Positions 30,050-50,659 of a stretch of 64,000 nt of DNA are shown piece by piece. The DNA lies in IMG/VR virus record IMGVR_UViG_3300045974_000102, positions 32,001 through 96,000 of that record; one strand, 5' to 3'. Made by a program: the position numbers and the translations under genes. Origin of the DNA: a virus. How positions within the stretch are numbered: position 1 is the first letter of the stretch; every line of letters starts with the position of its first letter. The notes below the pieces were generated by a model. It was given only the letters and a program-made list of their open reading frames with translations. It did not search any database and was not told the DNA's origin.

Positions 30050-32386
30050 TTAGGCCCCAGCGGTCACATTTCTGTCGATTACAGCCTCAATGTCTACTTG
30101 TGTCAATTCTTCCGGTGGGTTAAGCGATGTTTTTAGGAAGAACTTACCAATAGCTTTTTGAGATTCGATAATCTGCAGATCGAATGTGTAGCCGTTTAGA
30201 AGGCCTTTATTTACATCAAGGCCGAAGCTTTCAGCTAGTTTTGTTTTAGCAGCTTCGTAGTAGTATCTGTTAACAGCCTTACCAATGAAGCCAGCGAGAA
30301 GAGCGCGTTTGCCCTCGATTACAGTCTTGATAATTCTTGTAGTAGAGATTAGGTAGTAAGCTGACTGATCTCTTGCTACAGAGTTACCATTGTTAATTAC
30401 CCAGCCAAGACCGTGCTCACGAGTAACTACAATGTAGCCCTTAGCTGCTAGGTCCGAATACCACTTGCGATTGACAATAACGCTAACAGTAACATTAGAA
30501 TTAACACCAATCTTGCTGAATGAGATACCTTCATTCTTAGGCTTGCCAGCTAGCATACCAAGAGCATAAATACCACATGCATCAATGTATGATTTACCAG
30601 AAGCTCTATTAGTGAAGGTAAGTAGACCAGCACCAACAAGAAGGAATTTGCCAAGGTCTACAGTATTATTGTAGGTATCATAGATGACATCGCCATCAAT
30701 GAAGCCTTGGTCAGTCATTAGAAGTCCCCATGCAGGATCAGAGTAAGAGCCATTTATTGGATCACTCATACCACAGCGGTTGAATGCTGTAGAGCCAGAC
30801 AGTGAAGGTTCACCAAGTAATCCTGTTCCATCGCTTGCAAGAGATAGAATTGTATTGTCAAGTCCTGCCACATACACAGGTGTAGGAGCTTTACCAATCC
30901 AGTTTACAATGCCTGATCTTGTGAACCCAGCTGCTGTAACTGTGTCGATATCTGCATTCATGCCACAAAGTGGAGTGTTATAACCAATTGTTGCTTGATT
31001 GCAGAAGTTAGCGAACATATAGCCAAAGTGTGCAAGATAGTATCCTGGCAGTTTGACATCAGACCATGCACTGAATTCAATATGGTCACCCATATCATAT
31101 TCTTTGATGTATCCAAGGCCAAGTTGGAATGGCTGTGTGCCGGTAAATGTAGTCGAGACAGTTGTCCCGATGAAAGCACCACCAATAACTTTAGTAGCCA
31201 CTACAGCGGCACCAGAAGTAAATGGTGCACCAGATGCCATGTAGTATGAGAATGGCACGCCTACTGAACTATTTAGCGGACTAACAATATTAACTACATT
31301 GCCAGTTGCATCAACTGCTTTATACTTGATGGTATAGCCAGAGACTGATAGATAGCCTTCTGCCTTGATATCCGCCTGTGTAAAGCCGCCAGATGCAGTA
31401 AGTGTAAGCTGAGTAATACCAGAGGCACTGATAGGAGTTGTGAATACTGGCTTCTTAACGGTAAGTTGATAATCAGCAACTTGGTATACAGTCTTAGAAG
31501 TATAAGAGTGCACGTCGTTACCAGCAGTTGTCATTATAGAGACTGTGCCTGCAGCGGGCCAATCATCAGCAGCGTCTACGTTAAGTATAGAGGCTGATGT
31601 GGTATCACTTACAAGTGTAGTTGCTCTTGTGGTATTGCCAGTATAGCTATATGTTTCGTTATAAGCGACACCAGCCGGAATGATATAGTCAGGTGTATAT
31701 TGTTCAAGATCTGCTAGAGCATTACGGAAATACTTGTAATAGGCTCTATAGTCTGCCGATGATGGTGTTGAGCCGACTGCACATTCACTATCAGAAGCAG
31801 TTACAGATAGACCGAATGCGCTCTGTGAGTATGCTGTTAGTGTTGTTAGTGTTGTTGCAAGTGGATCACTATCAAGATCTATACCGGTGATTGTGCCAGT
31901 GCCAGCTAGTGTTGCAGTTACAGTGAAGTAACCACCATCTATACCTCTTAGTGAGTCGTAAACTTTCTGCTTGTTCTTATCCCAGATTTTAACGCCTCTG
32001 GTTTGAGTAACAAGGCTATCGTTTACACAAATAGTATAGTCATTACCAAGACCAGTGTATGCATCTTTTGAAGTAATATCAATACCATTAGTTGTTTTTA
32101 CGTGGAATGGAATGCCACCAATTCTCTTGGCAACAAATTTCAATGGAATAGTACGACCAGCGTCAGTGTAGCCATCCCAGAATTCAAATAGAGCTTTTGT
32201 GATTGGGCTGTTAGTGCCGTAAAGGCCAATAGCAACATCTGGATTCGCAAGAGTTACAACATCAAGCGGTCCTTTGATAGCTGGGCCAATAAAAATCGCA
32301 AGCTCACCATCTGTATCTCTACGAGTGATGTCATCACCCAAAAATACAGATACGCCTGATAAGTAACGAGGTGCAACTTTAAACAT
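30050..32386 (-). CDS. Tail sheath protein (778 aa)
   Basis: IFIGPAIKGP N-terminus; C-terminal ISTTRII...FIGK...LNPPEELTQVDI typical of sheath domains; large Ser/Thr-rich central insertion. Confidence 0.85.
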   Translation of the reverse strand: MFKVAPRYLSGVSVFLGDDITRRDTDGELAIFIGPAIKGPLDVVTLANPDVAIGLYGTNSPITKALFEFWDGYTDAGRTIPLKFVAKRIGGIPFHVKTTNGIDITSKDAYTGLGNDYTICVNDSLVTQTRGVKIWDKNKQKVYDSLRGIDGGYFTVTATLAGTGTITGIDLDSDPLATTLTTLTAYSQSAFGLSVTASDSECAVGSTPSSADYRAYYKYFRNALADLEQYTPDYIIPAGVAYNETYSYTGNTTRATTLVSDTTSASILNVDAADDWPAAGTVSIMTTAGNDVHSYTSKTVYQVADYQLTVKKPVFTTPISASGITQLTLTASGGFTQADIKAEGYLSVSGYTIKYKAVDATGNVVNIVSPLNSSVGVPFSYYMASGAPFTSGAAVVATKVIGGAFIGTTVSTTFTGTQPFQLGLGYIKEYDMGDHIEFSAWSDVKLPGYYLAHFGYMFANFCNQATIGYNTPLCGMNADIDTVTAAGFTRSGIVNWIGKAPTPVYVAGLDNTILSLASDGTGLLGEPSLSGSTAFNRCGMSDPINGSYSDPAWGLLMTDQGFIDGDVIYDTYNNTVDLGKFLLVGAGLLTFTNRASGKSYIDACGIYALGMLAGKPKNEGISFSKIGVNSNVTVSVIVNRKWYSDLAAKGYIVVTREHGLGWVINNGNSVARDQSAYYLISTTRIIKTVIEGKRALLAGFIGKAVNRYYYEAAKTKLAESFGLDVNKGLLNGYTFDLQIIESQKAIGKFFLKTSLNPPEELTQVDIEAVIDRNVTAGA

Positions 32387-32412
32387 GTATCTGTCCTCCG
32401 TTAAGTAAAATC

Positions 32413-33123
32413 CTAACTTATTCCAGCTTGAATAACAATTTGCTCAAGCTTCTTTTCTTTCGTCTCTCTAATCTCCGAGAATCTTATGAGGTACTTCTCA
32501 GACTTCATTTTCATAAAAGTCTTATTGTCCCACATATCGCTTTCGTGGCTGCCCATCCAAACTATTTCACGGAGCCCTTTGTGCTTAAAATACCAAATAC
32601 TGTCATTTATAATTTCCCTAAGCAACCTGGATCTCTTTCTTATATCGAAAAAATCTATTCCCCACACTTTGAAATCAATTATAGCCTCTATGTCTTTTGC
32701 GAATCTAATAATCGAGTATCCGGTGTAGTTAGGGTCATCATAAATGCCTACGGGTCTGAACTTCAAACTTCTTATTCCATCTTCGCCCATCCGATGTGCT
32801 GACACTACGGCTGGGGTTTCTGATGCAGAGTAGGTGACTATCCTTAAGTCTCTAAGTGTTGTGTCATCTATCTCTACTTCACTTGACTGATTATTTAATT
32901 TTACTACAAGCTCTCTTGGAATGTCTTCAACAATGATAAGTTTATCTGTATCTGGTATGCTGAAAGTTTTATTCCAATTATCATGAGCCTCTTGCAGAAC
33001 TCTGAGAAACTCATTTACAGAAGTTACAATTCCTTCATTCTCTGGCTGTGGACTAAGATTTGCAATGCCAGGGGTTGATTCGTATATTTCTGCAAAAATT
33101 TTCTTAGCAAGAACTCTGCTCAT
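32413..33123 (-). CDS. Putative tail terminator / neck protein (236 aa)
   Basis: Directly upstream of the sheath; IIDFKVWG...YLIRFSE pattern like tail-completion proteins. Confidence 0.55.
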   Translation of the reverse strand: MSRVLAKKIFAEIYESTPGIANLSPQPENEGIVTSVNEFLRVLQEAHDNWNKTFSIPDTDKLIIVEDIPRELVVKLNNQSSEVEIDDTTLRDLRIVTYSASETPAVVSAHRMGEDGIRSLKFRPVGIYDDPNYTGYSIIRFAKDIEAIIDFKVWGIDFFDIRKRSRLLREIINDSIWYFKHKGLREIVWMGSHESDMWDNKTFMKMKSEKYLIRFSEIRETKEKKLEQIVIQAGIS

Positions 33124-35001: not shown

Positions 35002-35361
35002 CTACTGCTTATAATGCGCAGCTATACTACCTTGATATGAACTACTCTGTGACGATTTATTATAATGTGTGCTTATATTGCCTTTATATGAACTTTTTGG
35101 TCCGCCATTATAATGTGCTGCTATGCTACCTTGATACGAATTGCTTCCTGCTATGCTACCCAAATGTGTATGTATCGACCCACTAGATAAGTGAATATAT
35201 ATATCAGCATAAAAAGCTGAACCAAAGTCTGGCAGTTTATACTGCGTATGCGAAGCTAATATATTACTAGGTTTTAGGCTAGCAGTAAATGCTGGTAGTC
35301 CAAGCGTTATTAAGTTTGATACGCTTGTTCCTAAACCTTGTGTAAAAAATGCAGTAAGCAT
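35002..35361 (-). CDS. Hypothetical protein with SY(Q/K)G(S/N)IxxHY repeats (119 aa)
   Basis: Three copies of the repeat in the C-terminal half; coupled to the upstream gene. Confidence 0.6.
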   Translation of the reverse strand: MLTAFFTQGLGTSVSNLITLGLPAFTASLKPSNILASHTQYKLPDFGSAFYADIYIHLSSGSIHTHLGSIAGSNSYQGSIAAHYNGGPKSSYKGNISTHYNKSSQSSSYQGSIAAHYKQ

Positions 35362-35999
35362 TATGTTGCTCTTGTAATCGAAGTTGGAGCTACACCATTA
35401 TCTAGTGAGAATGTCATTGATACATTGCCGTTATCAAGACGTTTGGTTGAAATAATAGTTTCTCCAGTCTTAGCCTTTTCAGATAACATGCCCCATATCA
35501 TAAAAAGCAATTGAGATAGTGTAGGACTATCTCCCTTGATAGCATAAGCTTCTGATAATACAGATGTCGCTGTTACTCTTGTGCTGATAGGCGCGTCTAG
35601 ATTGTTAAGTCTTATGTCATTAGTTAAGAGCGGGTTGCTTGGTATAGCTGCAACAATAGTATTCTTAGCTGCTGTTACATCTGCTAATGTAGCCATTCCT
35701 GAAACTGCTAGTGCTTTAGCTAATACTGGTGAATCTGATACTCCTAATAATTCTGTAGAAGCATAGTATTCAATGATATAGTCTCCAACTGGTAAGTCGA
35801 CTGATTCGCAGTATAGGGACTCGTATGTATCTGTAGTAGCATATTCTTTAAGATATTTGATAGTCGTGCCATCATCCGTTGCTTGGAATAAGCCTGACGA
35901 AAATATTAAGAGATAGCCATCGCTAGGTCTTCTAACTCTTATTTTTACATAAGAGTTGCCTTTAGTTTTAAGATATGGCACTGATACAGTAGTTAACAC
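35361..35999 (-). CDS. Hypothetical structural protein (212 aa)
   Basis: GTG start with AAGGAG RBS; RLNNLDAPISTR motif seen in phage fibre-associated proteins. Confidence 0.55.
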   Translation of the reverse strand: MLTTVSVPYLKTKGNSYVKIRVRRPSDGYLLIFSSGLFQATDDGTTIKYLKEYATTDTYESLYCESVDLPVGDYIIEYYASTELLGVSDSPVLAKALAVSGMATLADVTAAKNTIVAAIPSNPLLTNDIRLNNLDAPISTRVTATSVLSEAYAIKGDSPTLSQLLFMIWGMLSEKAKTGETIISTKRLDNGNVSMTFSLDNGVAPTSITRAT

Positions 36000-36010
36000 T
36001 GGCTATCTCC

Positions 36011-37234
36011 TTAAATGTTTATGATGCCTGGAGGTCTATTATCTTTAAGGGCAACTAAGTTAGCTTTAACCCAGCATACTTGCTCTTGGTTCTTCTCTGT
36101 TGTATAAATACGGTCTGCCATAAATCTTACTGGTATATCTATATAACGTGCCCAATTATAGTGAGTATAATATAAGAAGCTATTCTCGTTCCAATATGAG
36201 ACATGTGTTGGGTCCTGAAATGCTCCACGTCCGTCTGTAGATGGCACTTGAATGAAAGCATAGCCTCCTGGTGCTAATACTCTGTAGAGTTCTTTCATTG
36301 TATGTAGTGGATCGGCAAGATGTTCAAATACATCAAAGGCCCTAACGGCTCCAACTGAGTTATCTGCAAAAGGCCAAATGCCATTAAGATCGGCAATAAT
36401 ATCGGCGTCTTTAAGATCTACAGACAAATAGCCTGGTGCTGTATCAAATCTACCACCTAAATCAACTGTTAATAAGCCCTCTCTGTTTGCCCAGGCCTTA
36501 ACCATATCTTCTATGTAAAGATCATACAATCTCCAGCAGTTAGCTTGTATCTCGTCTGAATACTTAATCCAGGTGTTTTCTCCAGTAATTCTATAAGCAT
36601 ATAAGAACTCATGAATAGCATGGAACTTAGTTATCATATAAGTACGAGCCATTAAGTCCTGGTCATCAAGCACTCTCATGTCTATGCTGTGTCCACCTGC
36701 TTGCCAGTATATATCTTTACGCCATGCTCTTAAATGGTCAGGTGCAGTCCATATCTTTGAGATAGCTGTAGGTGAAGGATCTGGTGTTCTGTGAACTCTA
36801 AAGTTTCCAGTAATATAGTTAGACCAGCCCCAGGCAGGATTAAAGGCTTCAGCGGGCGTATAGACGCCATTAGTATCAACAAATCTACCATCGTCTGAGT
36901 AAACAAAACCTACCTCTGGGTCCTCAAAGGCTTCTCTTATCTTGTCAATAGCTCCAGGCATTAGCATGTCGTCGTGGTCAAGTTCAACAAGGATATCACC
37001 TGTGCACTTAGAACAAGCAGCTCTCTTAAGAGCTCCAACATATAATGCTTCATCATAGCCCCAAAATACTTTTATTCTAGTGTCTGTCTGTATACCTAGT
37101 AGACCTGAGTTGCTATATGGTATATCTGTGCCACTTACAACTATAACCCATTCATCAAAGGATTGGTCTTTAATGCTGTCGTAGAGTTCAGGAAGCCACT
37201 TAGTATTATGTGTAGGAGTAAAGATACTTATCAT
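36011..37234 (-). CDS. Glycosyltransferase family 2 fused to a class I SAM-dependent methyltransferase-like domain
   Basis: ISIFTPTHN, ELDHDD (DxD), DDQDLMAR; then VDLGG, PFADNSV, FEHLADP, RVLAPGG, DPTHVSYW. Start moved to the ATGA overlap at 37234. Confidence 0.9.
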   Translation of the reverse strand: MISIFTPTHNTKWLPELYDSIKDQSFDEWVIVVSGTDIPYSNSGLLGIQTDTRIKVFWGYDEALYVGALKRAACSKCTGDILVELDHDDMLMPGAIDKIREAFEDPEVGFVYSDDGRFVDTNGVYTPAEAFNPAWGWSNYITGNFRVHRTPDPSPTAISKIWTAPDHLRAWRKDIYWQAGGHSIDMRVLDDQDLMARTYMITKFHAIHEFLYAYRITGENTWIKYSDEIQANCWRLYDLYIEDMVKAWANREGLLTVDLGGRFDTAPGYLSVDLKDADIIADLNGIWPFADNSVGAVRAFDVFEHLADPLHTMKELYRVLAPGGYAFIQVPSTDGRGAFQDPTHVSYWNENSFLYYTHYNWARYIDIPVRFMADRIYTTEKNQEQVCWVKANLVALKDNRPPGIINI

Positions 37235-39243
37235 AAAGTTGTTCCTATTGGTATCCATGTTCCACTTGTAAATTTCATTAAAGGAAGTCTTGAGAAGATA
37301 CCTGAATGGTAGTCATCTATAAGCGTCTCTTTCCACTGTCCACCACTGTATCTAAAGAGAGTTCCACTTGTCATCGCAGACATAATCAACTCTGGTGTCA
37401 CTATCATTAGCTTCTTAACTAAAGTTCTTGTATCTAATGGATAGAAATTTACATTGCTGTTACTTCCGCCGTTGATGGACTTCTCAGCGTAGAGTGACTG
37501 ACCAGTTACCTTGATATCCTTTATGTAGCATTTACTGGCGGTTAGTGGTCTACCGGTAATATTTTTAATGGTTGCTTTAGTTCCTGCGCTCGTTGAAATG
37601 ATGCTATTAGTTGCTATCGGTTTGGTCGGCACCAAGAATGCTGACGGATTCAAACGTATTTCTGAATTTATAACTTGGTAATTTTGTGGATTGAAGTTGC
37701 CTGCTGCTACTGTCAGTTTATTATTGGTCCCACTGGTAAGAGTGAGGCCATTGGTTAGAGTGTAAGTGCCACCGATAGAGTTGATGGTGATACCGGTGTT
37801 AGACGAAGAACCATAAGGACTTGTAACATTTATAGCGTGAGTAACCGTATTGCCAGCAGCATCTTTATTCCTTCCTGCTAAAACTAGATTACCTCCGCCT
37901 CTAGCATTAAGGACTACTCCGCCTATCAATGTTAAACTTCCATATATGTAGTGCGAACCTCCACCACCATCATACACATAAAAAGCCGTATTTGCATCCT
38001 GACTCATAGCTAAATTAGCACACAAATGGGGACTTGTTGAAGCATTTGTAGAAAGTCTTTTTACATAATCACAACTGATTGTCACATTGTCTTGAGGTAA
38101 GGCAATCCTTGAGGATGTGGTTCCATCAAGTAGAGTCCACGCAACATTTGTCCCATCGTTAACATGCCATAATGCGGCAGTTGTAGCATGTGATTTAACT
38201 AGTAGTTCTAAGTCGGGAGCAAAAGTAATCCCACTATTTCCCAAACAATTCCCTACGGTTTCAGTGGCATCGACACCTGTAGTCAAATCCCACGGAGTAG
38301 CTCCTACGGCGGCGATGTCTTGAAAGTTTGTCCATGAAATATTCTTAGTGCCAGAACAAGAAAGAGTTCTTTGAATGCCTAGACTATCAGAATTTATCAT
38401 GAGCCTATTGGTGACAGAGCCACTAGTTGCTAAACTAATAAAAGTTTGATTTGTAATTAAAGCAAATCGTGCGTTTGGACTAGTTGATGTTATACTGACC
38501 TTTCCACTTATATAACCAGCCCAGCGTCCTTGAATTGATGGGAAATTAATACTTCCTAAAAAGTTTGTAATGTAGATAGGTTGAGCATAACCCAAATCAG
38601 TGGAGCCTAAAGAATTAAGCGTTATGGTACTGTCTGCATCACTTATTAGTGTAGTATATGTTATAGCAAGAATAGAGGCTGTTCCACCTTGACCTAATAT
38701 TATTGTGCTTCCATTTATACTAAGTGTTTTTAAAGAGCCAGAAATAAACTGAAGACAGCCACCGCTAAATGTTATATTATCTAATATAACATAACCAAAA
38801 TTTCCTGTTAAGATTGTACTACTACTTCTACTTATTAGATTATCTTGAAAAACCCATTTTCCAACAGCATTAAAAATAACATTACCAGGTGCTTTTCCGC
38901 CCCATGTAATAGGCCAGCCAGCTCCATTATTAGTCGAAGTAGAATAAAAGACTATAGCAGAACTATCACTAATAGTATTATAAGTCCATGCACCTGAGAA
39001 ATCTAAAGTCCCACCAGAAGCGTCTCCAACAGCTAAAATAAAAGCATTGTGAGTTAAAACATGTCCTGAAGGATATGAGCTCATATTAATAGAGCGACAC
39101 GAGGTAGCAGCGTTAATAGTGCAGTTTGGTGATGTAGCATCAAATACAACATCATCACTGGCTAGTGGAGCTATGCCTCCTGTCCAATTAGTGCCTACTG
39201 ACCAATTAGCATCTGTTGTTCCTCTAAAATAGAGAGTAGCCAT
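37231..39243 (-). CDS. Beta-helix-like fibre/adhesin protein (670 aa)
   Basis: YFRGTTDANWSVGTNW...PLASDDVVFD N-terminus and T/S/G/N-rich beta repeats. Confidence 0.6.
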   Translation of the reverse strand: MATLYFRGTTDANWSVGTNWTGGIAPLASDDVVFDATSPNCTINAATSCRSINMSSYPSGHVLTHNAFILAVGDASGGTLDFSGAWTYNTISDSSAIVFYSTSTNNGAGWPITWGGKAPGNVIFNAVGKWVFQDNLISRSSSTILTGNFGYVILDNITFSGGCLQFISGSLKTLSINGSTIILGQGGTASILAITYTTLISDADSTITLNSLGSTDLGYAQPIYITNFLGSINFPSIQGRWAGYISGKVSITSTSPNARFALITNQTFISLATSGSVTNRLMINSDSLGIQRTLSCSGTKNISWTNFQDIAAVGATPWDLTTGVDATETVGNCLGNSGITFAPDLELLVKSHATTAALWHVNDGTNVAWTLLDGTTSSRIALPQDNVTISCDYVKRLSTNASTSPHLCANLAMSQDANTAFYVYDGGGGSHYIYGSLTLIGGVVLNARGGGNLVLAGRNKDAAGNTVTHAINVTSPYGSSSNTGITINSIGGTYTLTNGLTLTSGTNNKLTVAAGNFNPQNYQVINSEIRLNPSAFLVPTKPIATNSIISTSAGTKATIKNITGRPLTASKCYIKDIKVTGQSLYAEKSINGGSNSNVNFYPLDTRTLVKKLMIVTPELIMSAMTSGTLFRYSGGQWKETLIDDYHSGIFSRLPLMKFTSGTWIPIGTTL

Positions 39244-39252
39244 TTAAGCTTC

Positions 39253-39684
39253 CTAAGCCGTTGTCTTTAGTAAAGCTGCAGCATAAGTATGAGAGCTAGA
39301 TGCACCAGCACCACAGCTAATTCTTACTTTAAGATAATGAATACCTTCAGGATATGCTATTGGAATAGTAACAGCCTCTTGGTTTGTCACGCTTGCTGTG
39401 AATGTTAGAGTATATGAAGCATAAGGATTCGCAACATAACCTGTCTGTGTTGGTGTATCATAAGTGGTGCCATCTTGACTTGTGAGGACTTCTATAAGAT
39501 CTGTTGTATTGGTAGCTGTATTTGCTACTGCAGTTGTATATACTTGCAGATTAAGCCCTATGGCTACACCTGCTGTGGATAATGTAGTTACGTCTACAGG
39601 TGTAGTTTCTATATAAATCTGAGCTGGCGTTAGGATGCCACTAGCATTGAAAGCTAGAGCTGTTCTTACTTGAGTTAATGCCAT
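39253..39684 (-). CDS. Hypothetical structural protein (143 aa)
   Basis: Thr/Ala-rich beta protein with SQDGTTYD and YLKVR; AGGAG RBS. Confidence 0.55.
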   Translation of the reverse strand: MALTQVRTALAFNASGILTPAQIYIETTPVDVTTLSTAGVAIGLNLQVYTTAVANTATNTTDLIEVLTSQDGTTYDTPTQTGYVANPYASYTLTFTASVTNQEAVTIPIAYPEGIHYLKVRISCGAGASSSHTYAAALLKTTA

Positions 39685-39686
39685 AA

Positions 39687-39986: not shown

Positions 39987-40018
39987 TTGAAGCTCCTTAT
40001 TAATCTTACTATTGATAA

Positions 40019-40462: not shown

Positions 40463-40473
40463 TTTATTCTCCC

Positions 40474-42006
40474 TTATCCACTTACTGTCCAACCCTTGGC
40501 TGTTGCTATGGTTCTAGTGCAACCAGCTGACCCAGGATTATTTGTTATTGTTACTATCTGACCTGTTGTGTTACCAAGCGCAGTAAATAAATTATTTAAT
40601 GCTGCTGCTCCGAGAATAGAATTTGAAATGGAAATATTTCTAGTAACTTGTATAGGAGCACTTGTTAAAGACCAGCAGCTGGAGAACATGCTAGTAAAGG
40701 CAGTTCCTGTTGCTGATAACATATTAAAAGATGGTATTGCATACAAAGAATAACAGCTGGTGAACATACTGGTAAATAGTGTTCCTGAAGATAGATTAAA
40801 TAATGGAACTGTTTGTAAGGTATAGCAACTATTAAACATATTACTGAAATTTGTTCCTTTACTAGTATTGAACAATGGAACTCTTTTTAAAGAATAACAT
40901 TGCTGGAACATAGCTGCGAAGTTTGTAGAATTTCCTGTATCATAGAGCGGAACAGTTTCCAAAGAAAAACAACTCGTTAGAAAATTTTGAAAGGTATTTC
41001 CTAAGGATGTATTTAGTAATGGAGCTTTTTGTAAACTATAACAGTTGGTGAACATACTGGTAAAGATTACACCGTGCGATGTATCGAATGACGGGACTGT
41101 TTGTAAACTATAACAGTTGTTGAACATACTACCGAAAGCTGAGACGTTAGCTGTATTAAGTAGCGGAACTATTATCAAATTCCAGCAGCCCTGGAACATA
41201 GTAGTAAAGATTTGTGCTGCTGATGTATTGTATAATGGAACTGTTTGCAAGCAATAGCAGGTAGCGAACATGGATGTAAAATTTATACCTGAAGATGTAT
41301 CCAAAAATGGAGCTACTACTAAAGAATAACAGTACCAGAACATCTGGGTAAAGTTTATTCCATGTTCCGTATTAATTGAAACTGACTGCAAAGAATAAAA
41401 GTTGGCAAACAGATTAGTGAAGTCTGTCTGAGCATTTGTGCCAATCCATATAAATTCTTCTAGGATACTGTGGCTCCATACAGCGGAGAACGTTGCTAAG
41501 GTACCAGCATTATTCAAAGCCATCTTGCATGATAACCATTTACTGAATCTGGTATTAGTTAGAGAGGTAGGTGTGCCAAGATTAATGCTAGATAATGTTT
41601 GTCCTGCTTGCGGAGTAACGACTATTAGAGCCTGTCGATATCCACGACTGCACCACGAGCCAGAAGGAACTCCAGCATAGACAAGGTTATGTTGAACTGT
41701 AATGCCAGACGCTACATTTTCTGAAGTTCCATCCCCCCAGTCTACATGATAAGCCCCAGCTGCAGCTAAAGTCACATAGTTGGTATCATAACTGAATACT
41801 GCATAAGAGCCAGCGAATATTTGGTCAGTATCAACAATCGTAGGAAAAGTAATCCAATCATCTGGACGAGCCCAGGACTCTTTAGTTCCAGTAATAATAT
41901 TGCCCCATATGCCTTGTGCCTGTAATTCTTGCTGATTCTCTATAGGGAAAATTCCACCTAAGCCTGGTCTGCGATAACCAATGCTACTAGAATCTGTTCG
42001 TCTCAT
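40474..42006 (-). CDS. BspA/DUF285-type leucine-rich-repeat surface protein with a PKD-like N-terminal domain (510 aa)
   Basis: VDWGDG; about 11 repeats of roughly 24 aa FxxMFxxCYSLxxVPxxNTS; C-terminal IATAKGWTV cap. Confidence 0.85.
   Translation of the reverse strand: MRRTDSSSIGYRRPGLGGIFPIENQQELQAQGIWGNIITGTKESWARPDDWITFPTIVDTDQIFAGSYAVFSYDTNYVTLAAAGAYHVDWGDGTSENVASGITVQHNLVYAGVPSGSWCSRGYRQALIVVTPQAGQTLSSINLGTPTSLTNTRFSKWLSCKMALNNAGTLATFSAVWSHSILEEFIWIGTNAQTDFTNLFANFYSLQSVSINTEHGINFTQMFWYCYSLVVAPFLDTSSGINFTSMFATCYCLQTVPLYNTSAAQIFTTMFQGCWNLIIVPLLNTANVSAFGSMFNNCYSLQTVPSFDTSHGVIFTSMFTNCYSLQKAPLLNTSLGNTFQNFLTSCFSLETVPLYDTGNSTNFAAMFQQCYSLKRVPLFNTSKGTNFSNMFNSCYTLQTVPLFNLSSGTLFTSMFTSCYSLYAIPSFNMLSATGTAFTSMFSSCWSLTSAPIQVTRNISISNSILGAAALNNLFTALGNTTGQIVTITNNPGSAGCTRTIATAKGWTVSG
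40660..41430 (-). repeat. Degenerate 72-bp coding tandem repeats (LRR)
   Basis: For example near-identical tttgtaaactataacagttg(g/t)tgaacatact at 41028 and 41100, 72 bp apart. Confidence 0.8.
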
Positions 42007-42365
42007 TAAGAAATCTCCTCATATGAAGCAATTGCCTCAAGATAAGAGTTTAGGTCCGCTGTAACACGGAGATCATCACCTTCTTCAAGATAAATAGGTA
42101 TATCCTTACCTATTACAATAAGTGTTGATTTAGGAGGAACAGATATCATATATGCTAATCTATAAGCAACTGATGAGCGATATATGTCAACTGTTATATT
42201 ACCATTCAGAGTTCCATTCACATTAGCTATAGAAAGTCCATTTATCTTTAATACTTTACCACTAGCTTCTGGATTAGTAATTATTGTCTGTGCTGAATTA
42301 GTGACAGCTAGAACTGCTGTTTTGCCAATAATTGTAGTGACATTTACTATATTAGGTGCTGCCAT
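42006..42365 (-). CDS. Conserved phage fibre-associated protein (119 aa)
   Basis: MAAPNIVNVTTI...IYLEEGD...SYEEIS; from recollection this family follows genes ending in TGKAIAMxIVFG, as here. Confidence 0.65.
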   Translation of the reverse strand: MAAPNIVNVTTIIGKTAVLAVTNSAQTIITNPEASGKVLKINGLSIANVNGTLNGNITVDIYRSSVAYRLAYMISVPPKSTLIVIGKDIPIYLEEGDDLRVTADLNSYLEAIASYEEIS

Positions 42366-42366
42366 T

Positions 42367-44145
42367 TTAGCCTCCGAAGACTATGGACATTGCTATTGCT
42401 TTTCCTGTAGATAAGCCACCACTAAATGAGCCACCACTAGATGGCTGCGCTAAAGTATTTATCCATAGCATACCTTCTATTGGCGATGGTGGTGCTGATG
42501 CTGAGATGATTATTTGATTGCCTTGAGGACCAGCACTTCCTGATGCGCCCTGCGGACCGATAGCTCCTGAGGCACCCTGAAAGCCCTGTGCGCCAGTTCC
42601 AGCAGGCCCTTGAAAACCTTGTGGTCCAATAGTGCCAGACGCTCCTTGTGCACCAGCAATAGACAATCCTGAGGCACCTTGAGTGCCCTGAAAGCCCTGC
42701 GTACCTTGGTTACCGCTGGCACCTTGCGTTCCAGTTCCTGTAAGTCCTTGGAAGCCTTGTGGTCCAATAATTCCAGATGCACCCTGATTGCCCTGAAATC
42801 CCTGAGGGCCCGCTGCTCCGCTAGCTCCTTGTGTGCCAGTTCCGGCAAGTCCCTGAAAGCCTTGAGGCCCCATTGCTCCTGATGCGCCTTGTGTGCCAGG
42901 TCCTCCAGAGGCACCCTGTGGCCCGGTAATAGAGAGACCAGAAGCACCCTGTGTGCCTACCCCAGTAAGTCCTTGGTATCCTTGTGGACCAATAGCTCCG
43001 CTTGCTCCCTGAAATCCCTGTGGACCAGTGGAACCAGAAGCGCCTTGGTTGCCAGTAAGACCAGTTAGTCCCTGTAAACCTTGAGTGCCCTGATTTCCAC
43101 TAGCCCCTTGAGGACCAACTACGGTAATGCCTGATGCACCCTGAACGCCTATACCACTTGCACCTTGAAAACCTTGAAAGCCCTGAGGTCCTGGTCCTCC
43201 CGATGCACCTTGTGTCCCATTATTGCCATTAGCACCTTGGGCTCCTTGAGAGCCAGAGGCACCAGTCAGGCCTGTTAAGCCTTGAAAACCTTGATATCCT
43301 TGAGGGCCCTGTATAGTCCCAACATTATTCCAATAAGTGCCTGTCCATACATATAAATTACCAACTACTAGATAGCTATCTCCTGGAGCACCAGATGGGT
43401 GTGCTGCAACAAGAGCACCAGATGTAGCATAAGAGCCAAGTATAGATACACCTGTGCCAGCTGAACCTTGATTACCTTGTGTTCCTGTGCCACCTGAGGC
43501 ACCCTGGTATCCTTGAAAGCCTTGATATCCCTGGCTTCCTTGGTTGCCTGATGCTCCTTGATATCCCTGGAAGCCACGTAAACCAGAAGCTCCTTGTGTG
43601 CCATCAATACCAGAAGCGCCTTGGAAACCTTGAAATCCTCTTAATCCAGATGCGCCTTGAGTTCCTACTAGGCCACTTGCTCCCTGAAAACCTTGAGGAC
43701 CTGTAATAGATAGACCAGATGCACCTTGAGTTCCTGCAAGGCCTTGTAATCCACTTGCGCCCTGAAACCCTTGGTAACCCATAGCACCAGATGCTCCCTG
43801 AGCTCCTGGGGCACCTTGTGGGCCTGTAATGGTTAATCCTGAAGCTCCCTGAGTGCCCTGGAAACCTTGTGGGCCTGTAGCGCCTGAAGCGCCTGATGTA
43901 GATAGTATTTTCCAGTTAGCATTTGCGATACCACCAACTAGTTGATAATTCCCACTTGCAGATACTACATATACAAGCATACCTTCACGGCGTCTTTCAG
44001 TGGTTATATTGTCACGCTCAGTTAGATCTGCGACTTCTCTATGTCCACCTTTACCATATAAAGAGTCGTGAACAGGATAGACGTCTGTCGTATCTGATGG
44101 TGCTATAAATCCGCCTACACGGACTGATCCTGGTATAGTAGCCAT
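42367..44145 (-). CDS. Collagen-like fibre protein (592 aa)
   Basis: Two long Gly-X-Y tracts (GAS, GFQ, GPQ, GTQ) separated by a small GDSYLV..LYVW domain; N-terminal ERRREGMLVYV domain. Confidence 0.9.
   Translation of the reverse strand: MATIPGSVRVGGFIAPSDTTDVYPVHDSLYGKGGHREVADLTERDNITTERRREGMLVYVVSASGNYQLVGGIANANWKILSTSGASGATGPQGFQGTQGASGLTITGPQGAPGAQGASGAMGYQGFQGASGLQGLAGTQGASGLSITGPQGFQGASGLVGTQGASGLRGFQGFQGASGIDGTQGASGLRGFQGYQGASGNQGSQGYQGFQGYQGASGGTGTQGNQGSAGTGVSILGSYATSGALVAAHPSGAPGDSYLVVGNLYVWTGTYWNNVGTIQGPQGYQGFQGLTGLTGASGSQGAQGANGNNGTQGASGGPGPQGFQGFQGASGIGVQGASGITVVGPQGASGNQGTQGLQGLTGLTGNQGASGSTGPQGFQGASGAIGPQGYQGLTGVGTQGASGLSITGPQGASGGPGTQGASGAMGPQGFQGLAGTGTQGASGAAGPQGFQGNQGASGIIGPQGFQGLTGTGTQGASGNQGTQGFQGTQGASGLSIAGAQGASGTIGPQGFQGPAGTGAQGFQGASGAIGPQGASGSAGPQGNQIIISASAPPSPIEGMLWINTLAQPSSGGSFSGGLSTGKAIAMSIVFGG
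42515..43895 (-). repeat. Collagen triplet-encoding low-complexity repeats
   Basis: 9-bp periodic, GC-richer sequence (e.g. ccttg/ccctg units on the plus strand). Confidence 0.85.
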
Positions 44146-44154
44146 GTAGTCCTC

Positions 44155-45228
44155 TTAGCTTATAATAATGCCTACAGCTCCGCCCATTACATTGGTTGAC
44201 CTGTGAACATTATAGTTAGTTACAATTCCATTTGCATTAGTTACAGAGACTGTATAGACTGCTTCAAATGGTATGTCTAGATTTGTGCCAGAGTCCTTGA
44301 AGGAAGTAGCTGTGCCTAATACAGATGGGTAGCTTAAATACTTATAACCGCCTGCAGCAAATGAATATGTTGCTGCAAGGCCTGCCGACAAGCCTGGTAT
44401 TCTTAATGCTTTAATATTTGCTTCAGCAAGAGACGTAAGTGCGCTTTCACCATAATACCTCATCCATTGCCAAGAAACTGCATAATCTCTTATGAAATTA
44501 GCTGACTGAGTATTAGTTCCTGTTATTCTCCAAGTATTAGAGGTAGCAGTTACTTTCTGCACTGAACCCATCGCCAACACTTCAGTTCCGTCATTTAGCA
44601 GACTGGAACCCAGTGTGGAGCTTCCAGTAATGTCTTGTATCATTATGCTATTAGTATTTATATTGCCTGGATTTGTAGTGCCCCAAGTGAATGTTTTGGA
44701 GCCTGAAATAGTCGTGCCTACTTCAACTGGTGTAGATACGCCTGTAATGCCGAATGAGTTGAAGGCTGGGACTTGATATGGGTAGAGTAGTGAGTCCCAC
44801 ATTTGTGTCATTGTCTTATTAGAAAAAGTTGTATTTTGTGCTATACCGCCTATAGCTGTTGGAACTAATGTGGCATTAGTATATGTTGGTGCCGATACTA
44901 CTGTTTTATAAGTTCCATCGTCAGATAAAAATGTAGAGCCACTACCTGCTGCTGTAATGACATCTAAGGTTGTTTTATTTAAGTGTGAATGTCTTGCTGA
45001 GGTATTTAGAGCTATATCTGAGTGAACAAAGGCTCCTAAGTGTGTTGCTACAGCACCACTAGCGGCACCTGATGCATCTGCACCTATAGTAGCCGCTGTT
45101 ATTGTTATAGCCTCTATGCCTGTTTCATCTGTCTTAACTCTAAGCCACTTACCACCTGAGCCAGTATAAGTTGTCAAAGTATCAAGTAGGTCAGTAAACT
45201 TTCTATACGCTCTGTTGATAATACTCAT
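44155..45228 (-). CDS. Putative fibre base / structural protein (357 aa)
   Basis: KWLRVKTDETGIE and FLSDDGTYK fibre-shaft-like motifs; LLYPY...VEVGT...YKYLSYP beta domain; adjacent to the collagen gene. Confidence 0.55.
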   Translation of the reverse strand: MSIINRAYRKFTDLLDTLTTYTGSGGKWLRVKTDETGIEAITITAATIGADASGAASGAVATHLGAFVHSDIALNTSARHSHLNKTTLDVITAAGSGSTFLSDDGTYKTVVSAPTYTNATLVPTAIGGIAQNTTFSNKTMTQMWDSLLYPYQVPAFNSFGITGVSTPVEVGTTISGSKTFTWGTTNPGNINTNSIMIQDITGSSTLGSSLLNDGTEVLAMGSVQKVTATSNTWRITGTNTQSANFIRDYAVSWQWMRYYGESALTSLAEANIKALRIPGLSAGLAATYSFAAGGYKYLSYPSVLGTATSFKDSGTNLDIPFEAVYTVSVTNANGIVTNYNVHRSTNVMGGAVGIIIS

Positions 45229-45242
45229 TACCTAACCCTAGC

Positions 45243-45269
45243 GTGCCGCTACTTATTTGGTAGCGGCAC
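45243..45269. other. 10-bp perfect hairpin in an intergenic gap
   Basis: GTGCCGCTAC-N7-GTAGCGGCAC; no U tract on the coding strand. Confidence 0.65.
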
Positions 45270-45282
45270 TTGTTGTGGGATA

Positions 45283-45465
45283 TTACTTCTTGTCACCTTT
45301 GCCAGAAATGCCAACTACCATAGTATTCTGCATGCCGCTTTTCTTTCCGCCAGTAGTCTTAGCTCCAGCCATTGCGTGCTGTGAACCGGAAGTCTTCATT
45401 TTGCCACCAGTAACTAGTGGTTTGTTTCCGCCTGATGCTGTAGTTTTCTTACCCATTTTTGCCAT
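45283..45465 (-). CDS. Small Lys/Gly-rich basic protein (60 aa)
   Basis: AAGGAGG RBS; K/G/T/M-rich and nearly free of acidic residues. Confidence 0.7.
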   Translation of the reverse strand: MAKMGKKTTASGGNKPLVTGGKMKTSGSQHAMAGAKTTGGKKSGMQNTMVVGISGKGDKK

Positions 45466-45480
45466 GTTATTTATGCCTCC

Positions 45481-45597
45481 TTAGCACTTTTTCTTGTCTT
45501 TCATTGGCTTGCTGCTTTTGCAAGCGTCTGTTGTCTTCTCTTTACTGCCACTTGTCTTCTCTTTCTTTGCGAAAGGATTTGGTTTCTTAGTTGCCAT
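45481..45597 (-). CDS. Small Lys-rich protein (38 aa, MATKKPNPFAKKEK...KDKKKC)
   Basis: Not in the ORF track; AAAGGAG RBS, fills the gap between neighbours. Confidence 0.7.
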   Translation of the reverse strand: MATKKPNPFAKKEKTSGSKEKTTDACKSSKPMKDKKKC

Positions 45598-45608
45598 GTG
45601 TTTCTCCT

Positions 45609-46148
45609 TTATTCAGGTAGTTGGAAGTTAACAATGTCTACGCTAGTGCCTTGGCGGTTAGCGTCGGAGTTAAGATAAATAGTAATAGTGCAGTCACCTG
45701 CTGGGACAACAAATGAGATATCACTCCAGTTAGTAAAAGGCTGTGCCTTAGTGCCTGGGAATGGTGCATTCCAAGCCTTGCCAGCTACACTACATTCATC
45801 AACCCCATTAACTTTCTTTGTAATATAAATGCTAATAAACTGATAGCTAAGTGCAGCACATCTAGCTTTCAGTGTAGCAGTTCCACCTTTACTGCCGACA
45901 ATAGACTTTTCAAGTTGGTATTGATTGCCTGTAGTCTGTCCGACTGGCATATAAGGTAGCTGAGGCGGATTCCAATACTTGCCTGGATGCGCACTTAGGC
46001 CTACTTCGCCAGAAGGGCCGATATTGGGGAAGCTGAATGTTGGTGGATCAGCTTTTGGTCTTGCTGGCCCAGTTGACTGGTCCCATGTTCCATTATTAAG
46101 TGTTAGTTTCCATCCACTTAGATCGCCTTGATTAAATTGTGCTTTCAT
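45609..46148 (-). CDS. Hypothetical beta-rich protein (179 aa)
   Basis: AAGGAG RBS; Trp/Pro/Gly-rich, possibly a carbohydrate-binding-like fold. Confidence 0.55.
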   Translation of the reverse strand: MKAQFNQGDLSGWKLTLNNGTWDQSTGPARPKADPPTFSFPNIGPSGEVGLSAHPGKYWNPPQLPYMPVGQTTGNQYQLEKSIVGSKGGTATLKARCAALSYQFISIYITKKVNGVDECSVAGKAWNAPFPGTKAQPFTNWSDISFVVPAGDCTITIYLNSDANRQGTSVDIVNFQLPE

Positions 46149-46163
46149 AAACTCTCCTTAGTT

Positions 46164-46406
46164 TTACTTCCCCATTTTTACACGGAAAAGTGCGTGACAT
46201 CCACTCATTAGTTGCTGTGAGCCTCTTTTAAGTTCACCTGCTGGAGCAAATGGTATGTGTAAATCTTTTTCTTCTATGGCATTAGCTTCAGACGTTGCAA
46301 AGCATCTTGGGACGTTATCATGTATATTATCATGATGCTCTTGCCAAGCTAACATTGATGTTACGAAGACTAATAATAATAGTGTTACAATGAGCATTTT
46401 ATTCAT
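46164..46406 (-). CDS. Small protein with an N-terminal signal/TM segment
   Basis: Likely start MNKMLIVTLLLLVFVTSMLAW at 46406. Confidence 0.5.
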   Translation of the reverse strand: MNKMLIVTLLLLVFVTSMLAWQEHHDNIHDNVPRCFATSEANAIEEKDLHIPFAPAGELKRGSQQLMSGCHALFRVKMGK

Positions 46407-46413
46407 ATTAGTC

Positions 46414-46602
46414 CTAGTGCTTCCAGCGCTTTGCATTTAAAGCGAATGTAGCACGCTTGCGCTGTAGTGTAGTAGACTTTGGATTAGCCATTACAGATTT
46501 AGCATGTTGCTGCACTGTCTGCCCTGCGCGTTTAGCTGATGCTGTAAATTTACCTTTGTTCTCAGGCTTTATGCTGATTTTGTCTTCGATCTTCTCTGCC
46601 AT
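46414..46602 (-). CDS. Small basic protein (62 aa)
   Basis: IKPENKGKFT...RKRATFALNAKRWKH; GGGAGG RBS. Confidence 0.7.
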   Translation of the reverse strand: MAEKIEDKISIKPENKGKFTASAKRAGQTVQQHAKSVMANPKSTTLQRKRATFALNAKRWKH

Positions 46603-48198: not shown

Positions 48199-48208
48199 TG
48201 TTATTAAC
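48199..48208 (-). promoter_or_regulatory. Candidate promoter motif GTTAATAACA
   Basis: Lies immediately after the MCP terminator; 13-bp identity (TGCGTTAATAACA) with 52849-52861. Confidence 0.45.
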
Positions 48209-48213
48209 GCACT

Positions 48214-48255
48214 AAAAGAAAAAAGGCGACTCTGTGAAGAGCCGCCCTTTCTTTT
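48214..48255 (-). terminator. Rho-independent terminator after the major capsid gene
   Basis: GGCGGCTCT-TCAC-AGAGTCGCC followed by TTTTTTCTTTT. Confidence 0.85.
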
Positions 48256-48277
48256 ACTACTAGTCGCAATCTTTCGA

Positions 48278-49456: not shown

Positions 49457-49483
49457 TACTTAATTCCTCCATTACCATTAGTA

Positions 49484-50659
49484 TTAGTAGTCAAGCGTAT
49501 TAAAGTTTACAGCGATTCTTGCCACAAGTTTAGGAGCATTGGCAATAGAAAGCTGAGTATTACGGCCATCAGTTGAATTACCTGGTTGTTCCTGCCATAG
49601 GCCTTGATCACGGAAGTAAGTTCTTACAAGAGCAAGATCTTTATCGCTACCAGGCTTAATGTCAAGAACACGTCCAACTTTTTCAGTTGCCTGACTAACA
49701 GAAAGCACAAAGTTAGAGCTAGAATCATATGTAACTCTCTTGCCGTAGAAAGTTCCTTCTCCAACTTGTGCTAGCGTATTCGTGCCAACAGATGTAGAGG
49801 AGTTACCATAGTCATAGCTTAGGCAAGTAAACGGAGTGTTGATTATTGGAGTATACTTAACAACCCAGTTAGCAGGGATTGGTCTATTGAAGAATATAGT
49901 TCTTCCTAGAACTGCATACTCAGTTGGGTTACCAGAAGCCATACCAGAAGGTGTGAAGTTAGTAGGAGTAGCAAGTGGCTTCATACCAGTAACTGCAGTG
50001 CCAAGTGTATTGCTTGTGAAGAATGAAAGCTGTGGTACTCCAGAGGCTACTGTAGGCCAAAGAAGGATACGTGAATCAAGTGTCGTAGAGTTAAGTGCTT
50101 CAACTCTTGGGTTAACTTCAACGATAGGCACTTGGATATAAGCCCAGCGAGAGAATGCTCTTGCTCCACCTGTATCATAGCCATGCTTGAAGAATGTTGC
50201 GGGATTGCTCGGATCTGTACCAGGAGCGGTAAGAGCAGAGTATCTCATAATACCAACTGGGACTGTTCCACTTAGACCAGCATCATTCATTGCTGTAGCA
50301 ACTTTGTAGCCAGCATAAGCTCTGACATTCGGGTTTGCCATTCTGATACCAGCATCTTCATCAAGAGTCGTGTAAGCAGTAACGAAACTTGATGCTGGTA
50401 GTGCACGCTGCTCATAACCCAAGTAAGCTGGGATTAGGCGACCTGCTGTATCAAGTGCGGCCACTTTACCCGGCATGAACACAAAATGACTACCAGCGAT
50501 TCTGTTTTCAGAAATCAGAGCAGGTAGGTAATGCGCAGGGTAAAATTCACCAGGAGGGTTTTGACCTTCACTAATTTCAACGTTATAGTTAGGTGTACCC
50601 TGAAGGACTTGTGGGGCATTTACGAAATTTGCAAAATAGTTAGTTCCTTGTCCTGCCAT
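49484..50659 (-). CDS. Putative capsid decoration/stabilising protein (391 aa)
   Basis: Between scaffold and MCP; PGKVAALD..GRLIPA, KVGRVL; GGAGG RBS. Confidence 0.6.
   Translation of the reverse strand: MAGQGTNYFANFVNAPQVLQGTPNYNVEISEGQNPPGEFYPAHYLPALISENRIAGSHFVFMPGKVAALDTAGRLIPAYLGYEQRALPASSFVTAYTTLDEDAGIRMANPNVRAYAGYKVATAMNDAGLSGTVPVGIMRYSALTAPGTDPSNPATFFKHGYDTGGARAFSRWAYIQVPIVEVNPRVEALNSTTLDSRILLWPTVASGVPQLSFFTSNTLGTAVTGMKPLATPTNFTPSGMASGNPTEYAVLGRTIFFNRPIPANWVVKYTPIINTPFTCLSYDYGNSSTSVGTNTLAQVGEGTFYGKRVTYDSSSNFVLSVSQATEKVGRVLDIKPGSDKDLALVRTYFRDQGLWQEQPGNSTDGRNTQLSIANAPKLVARIAVNFNTLDY

Follow-up and report, generated by a model that had tools for sequence, protein, structure and literature searches.

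A glycosyltransferase-methyltransferase fusion linked to collagen-like fibre genes in phages, and an Ala-Ser-Gly motif that does not follow the enzyme

The DNA analysed here, referred to as the window, is a stretch of 64,000 nt from IMG/VR record IMGVR_UViG_3300045974_000102 (record positions 32,001-96,000). Its source is a large uncultured phage. The main features are collected in Table 1. The major capsid protein (MCP) shares about 31% identity with its counterparts in the 0305phi8-36 / MTATph1 phages. The 391-aa protein encoded upstream of it matched no Pfam or PHROG family in profile searches, and language-model and structure look-ups were uninformative. The 2741-aa giant protein has a lysin-type match, and the three giant proteins are probably internal or injected. 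The distal tail/fibre block occupies genome positions 7735-32474, beyond the window, and served as an out-of-sample set.

Table 1. Landmarks of the window (positions are those of the window; ASG, Ala-Ser-Gly)
Feature	Position	Strand	Remarks
655-aa fibre-block protein, C-terminal end only	1..474	-	First gene of distal tail/fibre block
Three giant proteins, 2741, 1781, 2151 aa	5300..25348	-	0 ASG vs 3.1 expected
Tail sheath, 778 aa	30050..32386	-	phrog_16991 tail sheath match, residues 557-766
Accessory cassette, ~11.6 kb	35002..46568	-	Variable slot between head and tail genes
GT2-methyltransferase fusion (GT2-MT), 407 aa	36011..37234	-	Pfam PF00535 + PF08241
Collagen-like fibre protein, 592 aa	42367..44145	-	Pfam Collagen PF01391, E=2.6e-49; PHROG tail-fibre families
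MCP, 392 aa	48278..49456	-	PHROG major head protein families
391-aa protein, upstream of MCP	49484..50659	-	2 ASG

GT2-MT is a member of the accessory fibre cassette, whose ORFs encode products of 119 and 212 aa, GT2-MT, products of 670, 143, 99, 157, 510 (DUF285) and 119 aa, the collagen-like fibre, and products of 357, 60, 179 and 90 aa; it is doubtful that the 60-aa ORF is a real gene. In the syntenic relatives G002 and G003 a 309-aa homolog directly adjoins a 456-aa homolog and the slot contains neither enzyme nor collagen, and in G001, G005 and G006 it is filled by other inserts. The collagen gene lies 5 kb upstream of GT2-MT on the same strand, with seven genes in between. The repeat region of its product consists of 126 G-X-Y triplets in long uninterrupted stretches; G-A-S, which alternates with G-x-Q, accounts for 28 of them. 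Together with nine GxT triplets, this places Ser or Thr at the Y position in 29% of the repeat.

The product of the GT2-MT gene is predicted from its sequence and modelled fold to be a soluble two-domain enzyme, a metal-dependent GT-A/GT2 glycosyltransferase (residues ~1-225) followed by a class I SAM methyltransferase (~255-400). The GT2 domain scored 36.7 bits against PF00535 (cut-off 23.3; residues 11-145) and the methyltransferase domain 39 bits against PF08241, Methyltransf_11 (cut-off 21.2). Across 44 homologs the DxD metal/nucleotide-sugar motif, D86-H87-D88-D89, and the methyltransferase core LDLGG...DVFEHL are invariant, and D301, E304 and H305 are conserved. The AF2 model has a pLDDT of 92.3, and its top matches are GT-A/GT2 enzymes, with a Foldseek probability of 1.0 to K4CP, SpsA, TarS, TarP and RmlT for the GT-A Rossmann-like fold. 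The methyltransferase domain matches the sterol C-methyltransferase PDB 6f5z (E=2.7e-6). The start ATG at 37234 overlaps the TGA stop of the upstream gene as ATGA. The fusion and its translational coupling inside a structural cassette, both proposed in the preliminary description, are thus borne out. TarS/TarP, RmlT, K4CP, SpsA and WrtF (PDB 5tzi, 6h4f, 8bz6, 2z87, 1h7q, 9omm; E 1e-10 to 1e-13) have the GT-A fold and DxD site in common with GT2-MT, whereas their identity to it is only 13-18% and none has a methyltransferase domain; they act on glycans or polyols rather than on proteins.

GT2-MT belongs to a family of thousands of homologs, and one viral collection contains at least 582 of its loci. 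We surveyed the synteny of 80 further loci, in which upstream and downstream flanks were nearly equal in length (474 vs 517 kb) and lineages were cut at 70% identity. A collagen-like ORF was upstream in 26 loci and downstream in 5. In six loci the collagen-like gene immediately precedes GT2-MT, with gaps of -3 to 83 bp, and 16 of the 33 lineages have such a gene just upstream on the same strand. In these collagens about 20% of the triplets have Thr or Ser at Y. The three closest homologs with flanks all lie in virion modules, namely the cassette studied here, L045 (beside a collagen) and G004 (beside a sheath). In about half of the lineages no collagen lies nearby, and the homolog in S-CRM01, like the L052 group, is found among non-structural genes. 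These results support a genomic linkage between the GT2-MT family and collagen-like fibre genes.

The preliminary description had also counted ASG tripeptides, and our recount returned all of its figures exactly. There are 29 copies in the collagen-like protein, four in the sheath (residues 321, 331, 384 and 595, three of them in the variable central region), two each in the 391- and 357-aa proteins, and one each in the MCP (residue 377 of 392, in the variable C-terminal tail) and the 670-, 510-, 143-, 119- and 60-aa ORFs. The absence of ASG from the three giants, portal and terminase was likewise confirmed by a full count. With collagen left out, 14 ASG were observed against 3.34 expected in the region from the sheath to the 391-aa gene, and 0 against 5.74 in the rest of the window, a split (p=8e-7) that ranks first among 1,560 tripeptides. 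Permuting A, S and G in the five other ways gives no such split, and the tripeptide ATG is not enriched. The enrichment persists after correction for composition, and neither global shuffles nor local ones of 30, 15 or 8 residues ever attain the observed counts. The sites are not copies of one another in their contexts. Their codons are mixed, with serine encoded by both TCN and AGY, which places the motif at the protein level. In the out-of-sample distal block there are 26 ASG against 5.58 expected (p=3e-10). Overall, the exposed proteins of this phage have 39 ASG against 8.8 expected and the internal ones 0 against 5.8 (split p=4e-9; P=0.003 for the internal zero).

Does the motif, then, belong to the enzyme? 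For comparison we used five syntenic relatives lacking GT2-MT, and T4 besides. All five relatives show the contrast between exposed and internal proteins, with pooled observed and expected counts of 59/25.6 and 24/25.7, respectively. G005, whose complete genome lacks both GT2-MT and any PF00535 match, has 10 ASG against 1.8 expected in conserved orthologs, a 5.6-fold excess compared with 5.9-fold for the same proteins in the studied phage. In T4 the excess is 1.7-fold in exposed proteins (8 vs 4.7) and 1.0-fold in internal ones. Sheath orthologs from genomes without GT2-MT have 3, 2, 2 and 0 ASG, with two alignment columns shared. ASG therefore does not track the enzyme across related phages, and we find no support for it as a GT2-MT sequon on many surface proteins. 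A second point against that role is that ASG is almost missing from the collagens beside the closest GT2-MT homologs, which have 0-2 copies (0 in L045) and are built of GxQ/GxT triplets; 48 collagen-like ORFs near GT2-MT homologs, also with GxQ/GxT triplets, have 0-5 each. The neighbours of the S-CRM01 homolog have no ASG excess either.

Most of the non-collagen ASG is most likely a turn motif of exposed, beta-rich tail proteins, where it occupies loops or turns; it is over-used throughout the phage group, and mildly in T4, whether the enzyme is present or not. In ortholog alignments the sites fall opposite turn motifs and indels, with TKG, TDG, NDG, VDG or GNG at these positions, and GNG/ANA/SSA in the MCP; the predicted sheath model, at a pLDDT of 31, is too low in confidence for placing ASG sites on the surface. 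In the relatives' fibres [A/P/V]SG is enriched about 2-fold, and ASG is enriched 1.84-fold in the large neighbours of the 80 diverse GT2-MT loci. In its full form, in which A-S-G is a favoured turn independent of any enzyme, the higher level here is lineage drift and no modification is involved, we regard this explanation as evenly balanced. The contrast in the relatives and T4 and the other x-x-G turns at ortholog positions speak for it. A generic turn preference, however, does not predict that these residues are enriched in the order A-S-G alone, that sites were gained independently and mostly within single lineages (27 of 33 ASG-bearing columns are unique), or that the studied phage lies above the group baseline of 2.3-fold (p=1e-4) with no internal copy. 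A roughly two-fold further excess and the internal absence are thus left over by the turn-motif reading.

What, then, might GT2-MT act upon? With somewhat less than even confidence, we propose that it sugar-coats and methyl-caps the collagen-like fibre, the non-collagen ASG being mostly a generic feature. The enzyme would be expressed with the late virion genes from the accessory cassette, with the fibre encoded upstream of it, on the same strand, as its likeliest substrate. On the 28 G-A-S triplets the GT domain may glycosylate the Ser at Y or add to a sugar already present there, and the methyltransferase domain would then methylate that sugar. By analogy with bacterial spore collagens, the outcome would be a capped glycan on an exposed fibre. 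The BclA exosporium collagen of Bacillus anthracis carries O-linked oligosaccharides, ending in a methylated sugar, on its G-X-Thr repeats. Like the phage fibre it is a collagen-like filament on a particle surface, whereas its glycan is made by a bacterial multi-gene pathway; the comparison concerns the substrate, not the enzymes. SgtA of Clostridioides difficile, encoded next to BclA3, O-GlcNAcylates this exosporium protein on the Thr of its GPT triplets and accepts Ser as well (PMC7157674). SgtA is a soluble metal-dependent GT encoded beside a collagen-like surface protein, and GT2-MT is likewise linked to collagen genes; the SgtA acceptor, a hydroxy amino acid at Y followed by Gly, is matched by the Ser of the phage GAS triplets. 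The two pairs are likened by gene linkage and acceptor position. They differ in that the former belongs to a spore and uses G-P-T, and in that the phage enzyme carries a fused methyltransferase and lies 5 kb from its collagen. Several points weigh against coating of the collagen: none of the fold matches is a known protein O-glycosyltransferase, about half of the lineages are without a nearby collagen, the S-CRM01 homolog sits among non-structural genes, and seven genes intervene here. Moreover, the adjacency may be positional, because accessory genes tend to concentrate around the tail-fibre genes of aquatic phages (PMC7029224).

Alternatively, GT2-MT could act in the infected cell on a glycan of the host envelope (LPS O-chain, teichoic acid or capsule) and so block superinfection or re-adsorption of progeny, its place in the fibre region reflecting accessory-gene accumulation only. 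The best fold matches include GT2s of wall teichoic acid and polysaccharides, among them the prophage enzyme TarP, NCBIfam gives weak similarity to TuaG, and the S-CRM01 and L052 contexts would fit. In pelagimyophages and cyanomyophages, GTs lie in a hypervariable host-recognition cluster and are interpreted as modifiers of host LPS; as here, these aquatic myophages have GT genes interspersed with tail-fibre and collagen-repeat genes, but that work describes neither a GT2-MT/collagen pairing nor a motif analysis (PMC7029224). A hot-spot effect alone, however, predicts no specific partner gene, whereas the bias (collagen upstream, same strand, often overlapping) recurs in 16 independent lineages, and no membrane segment or lipid-carrier enzyme was seen in the cassette. 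We therefore consider action on host glycans rather unlikely.

The original proposal, that ASG is an O-glycosylation sequon and that GT2-MT adds a methylated glycan to a broad set of exposed virion proteins (sheath, capsid, baseplate and fibres), is improbable. The extreme, order-specific enrichment that recurs in the distal block, the lineage-specific gains at turn and indel positions and the level above the group baseline argue for it. Virion glycosylation in mycobacteriophages Che8 and Rita was reportedly described by Freeman et al. in 2023. These siphophages of actinobacteria use phage-encoded GTs to glycosylate their capsid (and tail tube) proteins, and no ASG-type motif is mentioned in two papers that cite the work (PMC11256854, PMC12582341). 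In the studied phage, the single ASG in the C-terminal tail of the MCP would be only circumstantial evidence for such a capsid glycan. Against the proposal stand G005, the pooled relatives and T4, the scarcity of ASG in collagens beside the closest homologs, and the unenriched ATG. What survives of virion glycosylation by this enzyme is a genuine GT2-MT in a fibre cassette, its collagen linkage and the Ser at Y; the ASG-guided coating of many surface proteins does not. In a variant that we consider distinctly improbable, x-Ser-Gly, chiefly ASG, is a real group-wide O-glycosylation site of another conserved enzyme. GT2-MT would here extend and methyl-cap that glycan, and selection would have multiplied ASG in loops of exposed proteins and purged it from injected ones, giving a glycan-shielded myovirus. 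G005 has a GT-B glycosyltransferase, a candidate for such an enzyme, and a homolog of it lies directly upstream of GT2-MT genes in other phages. Modification of phage DNA (glycosylated hydroxymethyl bases) instead of proteins is highly improbable: DNA hypermodification is a frequent role of GT-A and GT-B enzymes in phages (bioRxiv 10.1101/2023.12.21.572611) and this phage has a second, GT-B-like gene beside dUTPase and ribonucleotide reductase genes, but GT2-MT lies in the fibre cassette rather than in a nucleotide-metabolism cluster, its methyltransferase is of the small-molecule type and not a DNA C5-MTase, and no thymidylate-synthase-like or TET/JBP gene was found in 116 kb (a genome 56% complete; the TET control was uninformative).

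These results carry a caution: even overwhelming significance of a short motif within a single genome need not tie it to the enzyme encoded nearby, which only relatives without the enzyme revealed. The ASG pattern itself also stands out, since several lineages acquired the motif independently, at loop positions that differ, and injected proteins lack it. Should phages sugar-coat their collagen-like fibres with enzymes of their own, a common and unstudied class of appendage would bear a glycan layer, with possible effects on host recognition, stability and immune visibility. Because about half of the GT2-MT lineages adjoin an upstream collagen gene, a single biochemical test would annotate many genes.

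The window comprises bases 32001-96000 of a single viral contig of 115,882 bp with a completeness rating of 56%, and the minus strand carries all long genes of the window. The major capsid protein is approximately 31% identical to the capsid proteins of Bacillus phage 0305phi8-36 and Moorella phage MTATph1. Genes were called simply as the longest open reading frames (ORFs). The 214-aa and 443-aa proteins encoded directly after the sheath match phrog_9206 ('major head protein'), a label that is probably wrong for them given that their position is the expected place of the tail tube. A 60-aa ORF counted in the preliminary description overlaps a slightly longer 75-aa ORF, and the gene status of both is doubtful. 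Past the window end, a 257-aa protein with a full Pfam Peptidase_C14 caspase domain (E=1e-31) is kept at 44% identity in a relative, G005.

Features of the phage and of related loci (genome, G000, L042 and L044 refer to the contig of this phage; other L numbers are separate loci)
Feature	Location	Strand	Remarks
Terminase, portal, major capsid protein	window	minus	profile searches
Tail sheath, 778 aa	window	minus	profile searches
Two tube-position proteins	window	minus	profile searches
Three giant proteins, lysin-type segment in one	window	minus	profile searches
Baseplate wedge protein	window	minus	profile searches
214-aa and 443-aa proteins	window 27930-29993		
Accessory cassette	window 35002-46568		collagen-like fibre at 42367-44145, DUF285 protein, several unknowns, GT2-MT; slot comparison with five relatives
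GT2-MT gene	window 36011-37234		
60-aa ORF	window 45283-45465	minus	
75-aa ORF	window 45257-45484	plus	
Caspase-domain protein	G000:C1:97860-98633 (L044:1860-2633)	minus	~1.9 kb past window end
336-aa protein	genome 4212-5222 (L042)	plus	adjoins dUTPase and ribonucleotide reductase genes
1611-aa fibre protein	L042:13699-18534	minus	
GT-B family, Pfam Glyco_trans_1_4	L154:15043-16083 (G005), L052:5399-6430		directly upstream of GT2-MT in some phages, without GT2-MT in G005
913-aa protein of G001	L029:5022-7763		insert in variable slot
ORF with two GT2 domains and methyltransferase (G004)	L040:1636-7795		upstream of sheath

The preliminary description proposed that the Ala-Ser-Gly tripeptide (ASG) is an O-glycosylation sequon on surface proteins, recognized by a fusion of a GT2 glycosyltransferase and a methyltransferase (GT2-MT). 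Each of its ASG counts was recovered exactly, and the enrichment held when the expectation was computed from the own composition of each protein. In region 30050-50659 without the collagen-like protein, 14 ASG were observed versus 3.34 expected, as compared with 0 versus 5.74 in the remainder of the window. Among the 1,560 tripeptides with at least 5 occurrences, ASG ranked first for the split between the region and the rest (p=8e-7; runner-up 1.5e-3), a split shown by none of the other five orderings of A, S and G. Composition-keeping shuffles in windows of 30, 15 and 8 residues never attained the observed ASG values, and gave a P of ~0.003 for the zero ASG in the internal protein set. These 8-30-residue window shuffles and the five other orderings rule out a local A/S/G-rich composition. 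The ASG codons are mixed, with both serine codon families in use, which therefore rules out a DNA-level motif. Inflation by repeats or paralogy was ruled out as well, as the site contexts share at most 39% identity with each other.

The excess extends to genome 7.7-32.5 kb, a block unseen in the preliminary description that encodes distal tail, baseplate and fibre proteins, with 26 ASG versus 5.58 expected (p=3e-10); in control blocks the most extreme single tripeptide reached only 1e-4 to 1e-7. PSG and SGW are likewise high in this block, and most of that excess comes from a GYPSGW/C repeat of the 1611-aa fibre protein, which has ~10 copies of the short Cys/Trp repeat GYPSGW / YPSGC at residues 40-125. 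The same repeat is also the source of most of the YPS excess. CYS (5 vs 0.21), KWL (5 vs 0.33) and DGT (11 vs 2.3) occur far more often than expected as well in the non-collagen proteins of 30050-50659, probably owing to repeats in the DUF285 protein.

Large contigs were obtained for five relatives (G001, 71 kb; G002, 87 kb; G003, 84 kb; G006, 108 kb; and G005, 207 kb and rated complete), with capsid proteins 69-74% identical and all syntenic with this phage. GT2-MT, and any PF00535 match, is absent from all five, and their 556 kb contain zero collagen-like ORFs. The slot between a head-proximal 309-aa gene and a tail 456-aa gene is nearly empty in G002 and G003 and holds differing inserts in G001, G005 and G006; the stretch that carries GT2-MT and the collagen-like fibre is therefore an accessory cassette that occupies a variable slot. 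The G001 insert encodes a protein whose N-terminal major-tropism-determinant domain (Mtd_N) hints at a diversity-generating fibre.

ASG was compared using block definitions identical for all six phages, the exposed and internal classes resting on synteny and profile annotation. The observed/expected values for exposed and internal blocks, respectively, are 39/8.8 and 0/5.8 in this phage, 22/7.7 and 7/5.8 in G005, 13/5.1 and 1/1.9 in G001, 10/4.7 and 7/6.6 in G002, 7/4.2 and 1/4.7 in G003, and 7/3.9 and 8/6.7 in G006. Pooled, the five relatives lacking GT2-MT have 59 versus 25.6 in exposed blocks (p=1e-8) and 24 versus 25.7 in internal blocks. For twelve conserved exposed orthologs, the complete G005, which lacks the enzyme, shows 10 versus 1.8 (5.6x) and this phage 16 versus 2.7 (5.9x). 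The anticipated co-occurrence of GT2-MT with ASG enrichment was not found in the five relatives. This phage lies above the 2.3x baseline (p=1e-4) and is the sole one of the six with zero internal ASG, a difference of degree and not of kind. Only six of the 33 ASG alignment columns are shared between phages, so the sites were gained independently. At the ASG sites of this phage, the relatives in most cases carry a different turn motif (TKG, TDG, NDG, VDG, GNG, FSG), often beside indels. The tail sheath model, built from three sequences, has a pLDDT of 31.

Loci that do carry GT2-MT were surveyed as well. Among metagenomic homologs, the closest one (L045, 58% identity) is directly preceded by a 513-aa collagen-like protein with 0 ASG, and the collagen at another homolog locus, L053, has 2 versus 1.7 expected. 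Each of the 48 collagen-like ORFs in the vicinity of GT2-MT contains 0-5 ASG, the triplets being GxQ with GAT, GPT or GST. The homolog in S-CRM01 (43% identity) is sited among non-structural genes with 4 versus 3.5 ASG in its neighbours, and neither these nor the neighbours of other distant loci show an ASG excess. The 155 large non-collagen proteins flanking GT2-MT in 80 diverse loci have 81 versus 44 (1.84x), within the generic range. ASG as the sequon of GT2-MT is thus not borne out, the excess being present in relatives without the enzyme and missing from collagens beside its homologs.

G005 encodes a GT-B glycosyltransferase homologous (E=2e-31, 29% identity) to those directly upstream of the GT2-MT genes at L052 and L053. 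The group of relatives is therefore not glycosyltransferase-free and gives no clean control, for which reason T4 was taken. We know of no virion glycosylation in T4, where ASG is 8 versus 4.7 in exposed proteins and 2 versus 1.9 in others. A scan of sheath alignments as a general tail-module control covered four loci only. The most economical account is that most non-collagen ASG is a turn favoured by exposed, beta-rich proteins, independent of GT2-MT. In principle, the motif could serve another glycosyltransferase of this phage group. The 336-aa protein of this phage is similar to GT-B (GT4-type) enzymes both in its predicted structure (TM 0.76-0.95) and by language-model features, which makes it a candidate GT-B glycosyltransferase, as a lead only. 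It has no sequence match in Pfam, PHROG, NCBIfam or PDB and no detectable relation to the GT-B of L052 or G005.

What, then, does GT2-MT modify? Its identity as a GT2 enzyme fused to a methyltransferase was confirmed by above-threshold Pfam matches to Glycos_transf_2 and Methyltransf_11. The translational coupling reported earlier also stands: the N-terminus conserved in the family starts at ATG 37234, and this start codon and the TGA stop of the 670-aa gene upstream overlap in the sequence ATGA. The next gene has a GGAG ribosome site before it. The 407-aa product belongs to a very large and well conserved family (4,781 matches, the best 120 of which are ~400 aa and 53-61% identical), and an alignment of 44 sequences shows no variation in D86-H-D-D89 or in the methyltransferase core. 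In the confident AlphaFold model (pLDDT 92.3), the glycosyltransferase domain superposes on the GT-A/GT2 enzymes K4CP, WrtF, SpsA, TarS, TarP and RmlT, which use glycans or polyols as acceptors; the fold matches include no known protein O-glycosyltransferase. These matches are consistent with the main rival explanation, modification of a host envelope glycan, which is the published reading for glycosyltransferases in host-recognition regions of aquatic myophages (PMC7029224). DNA glycosylation is unlikely, as a search for DNA hypermodification genes found none, neither a hydroxymethylase nor a TET-like gene, on the 56% complete contig.

The genomic context points to the collagen-like fibre. 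In the 80 further GT2-MT loci, a collagen-like ORF (at least 8 triplets) lies upstream in 26 and downstream in 5, with comparable flanks searched (474 vs 517 kb), and of the 48 such ORFs, 42 share the strand of GT2-MT and lie upstream of it. The collagen gene immediately precedes GT2-MT in 6 of the 80 loci (gaps of -3 to 83 bp), and after clustering at 70% identity the collagen-upstream arrangement is present in 16 of 33 eligible lineages. The ORFs in between are unrelated, with no conserved adaptor gene. All three close homologs with flanks are in virion modules, namely this cassette, L045 beside its collagen, and the contig G004 just upstream of a sheath. In G004, a 132-aa gene alone separates the ORF with two GT2 domains and a methyltransferase from an unusually long sheath of 1251 aa.

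Our literature search found no description of an ASG motif or of a GT2-MT/collagen pairing in phages. Virion glycosylation in mycobacteriophages is cited as established in passages of PMC11256854 and PMC12582341. In C. difficile, SgtA, encoded beside BclA3, adds O-GlcNAc to Thr at the Y position and accepts Ser too (PMC7157674). The fibre of this phage has 126 triplets, 28 of them G-A-S in alternation with G-x-Q. Ser thus occupies the Y position with Gly after it, the position of the Thr modified by SgtA. Judged from synteny and this precedent, the most likely role of GT2-MT is glycosylation of the collagen-like fibre, whose glycan its methyltransferase part would methyl-cap.
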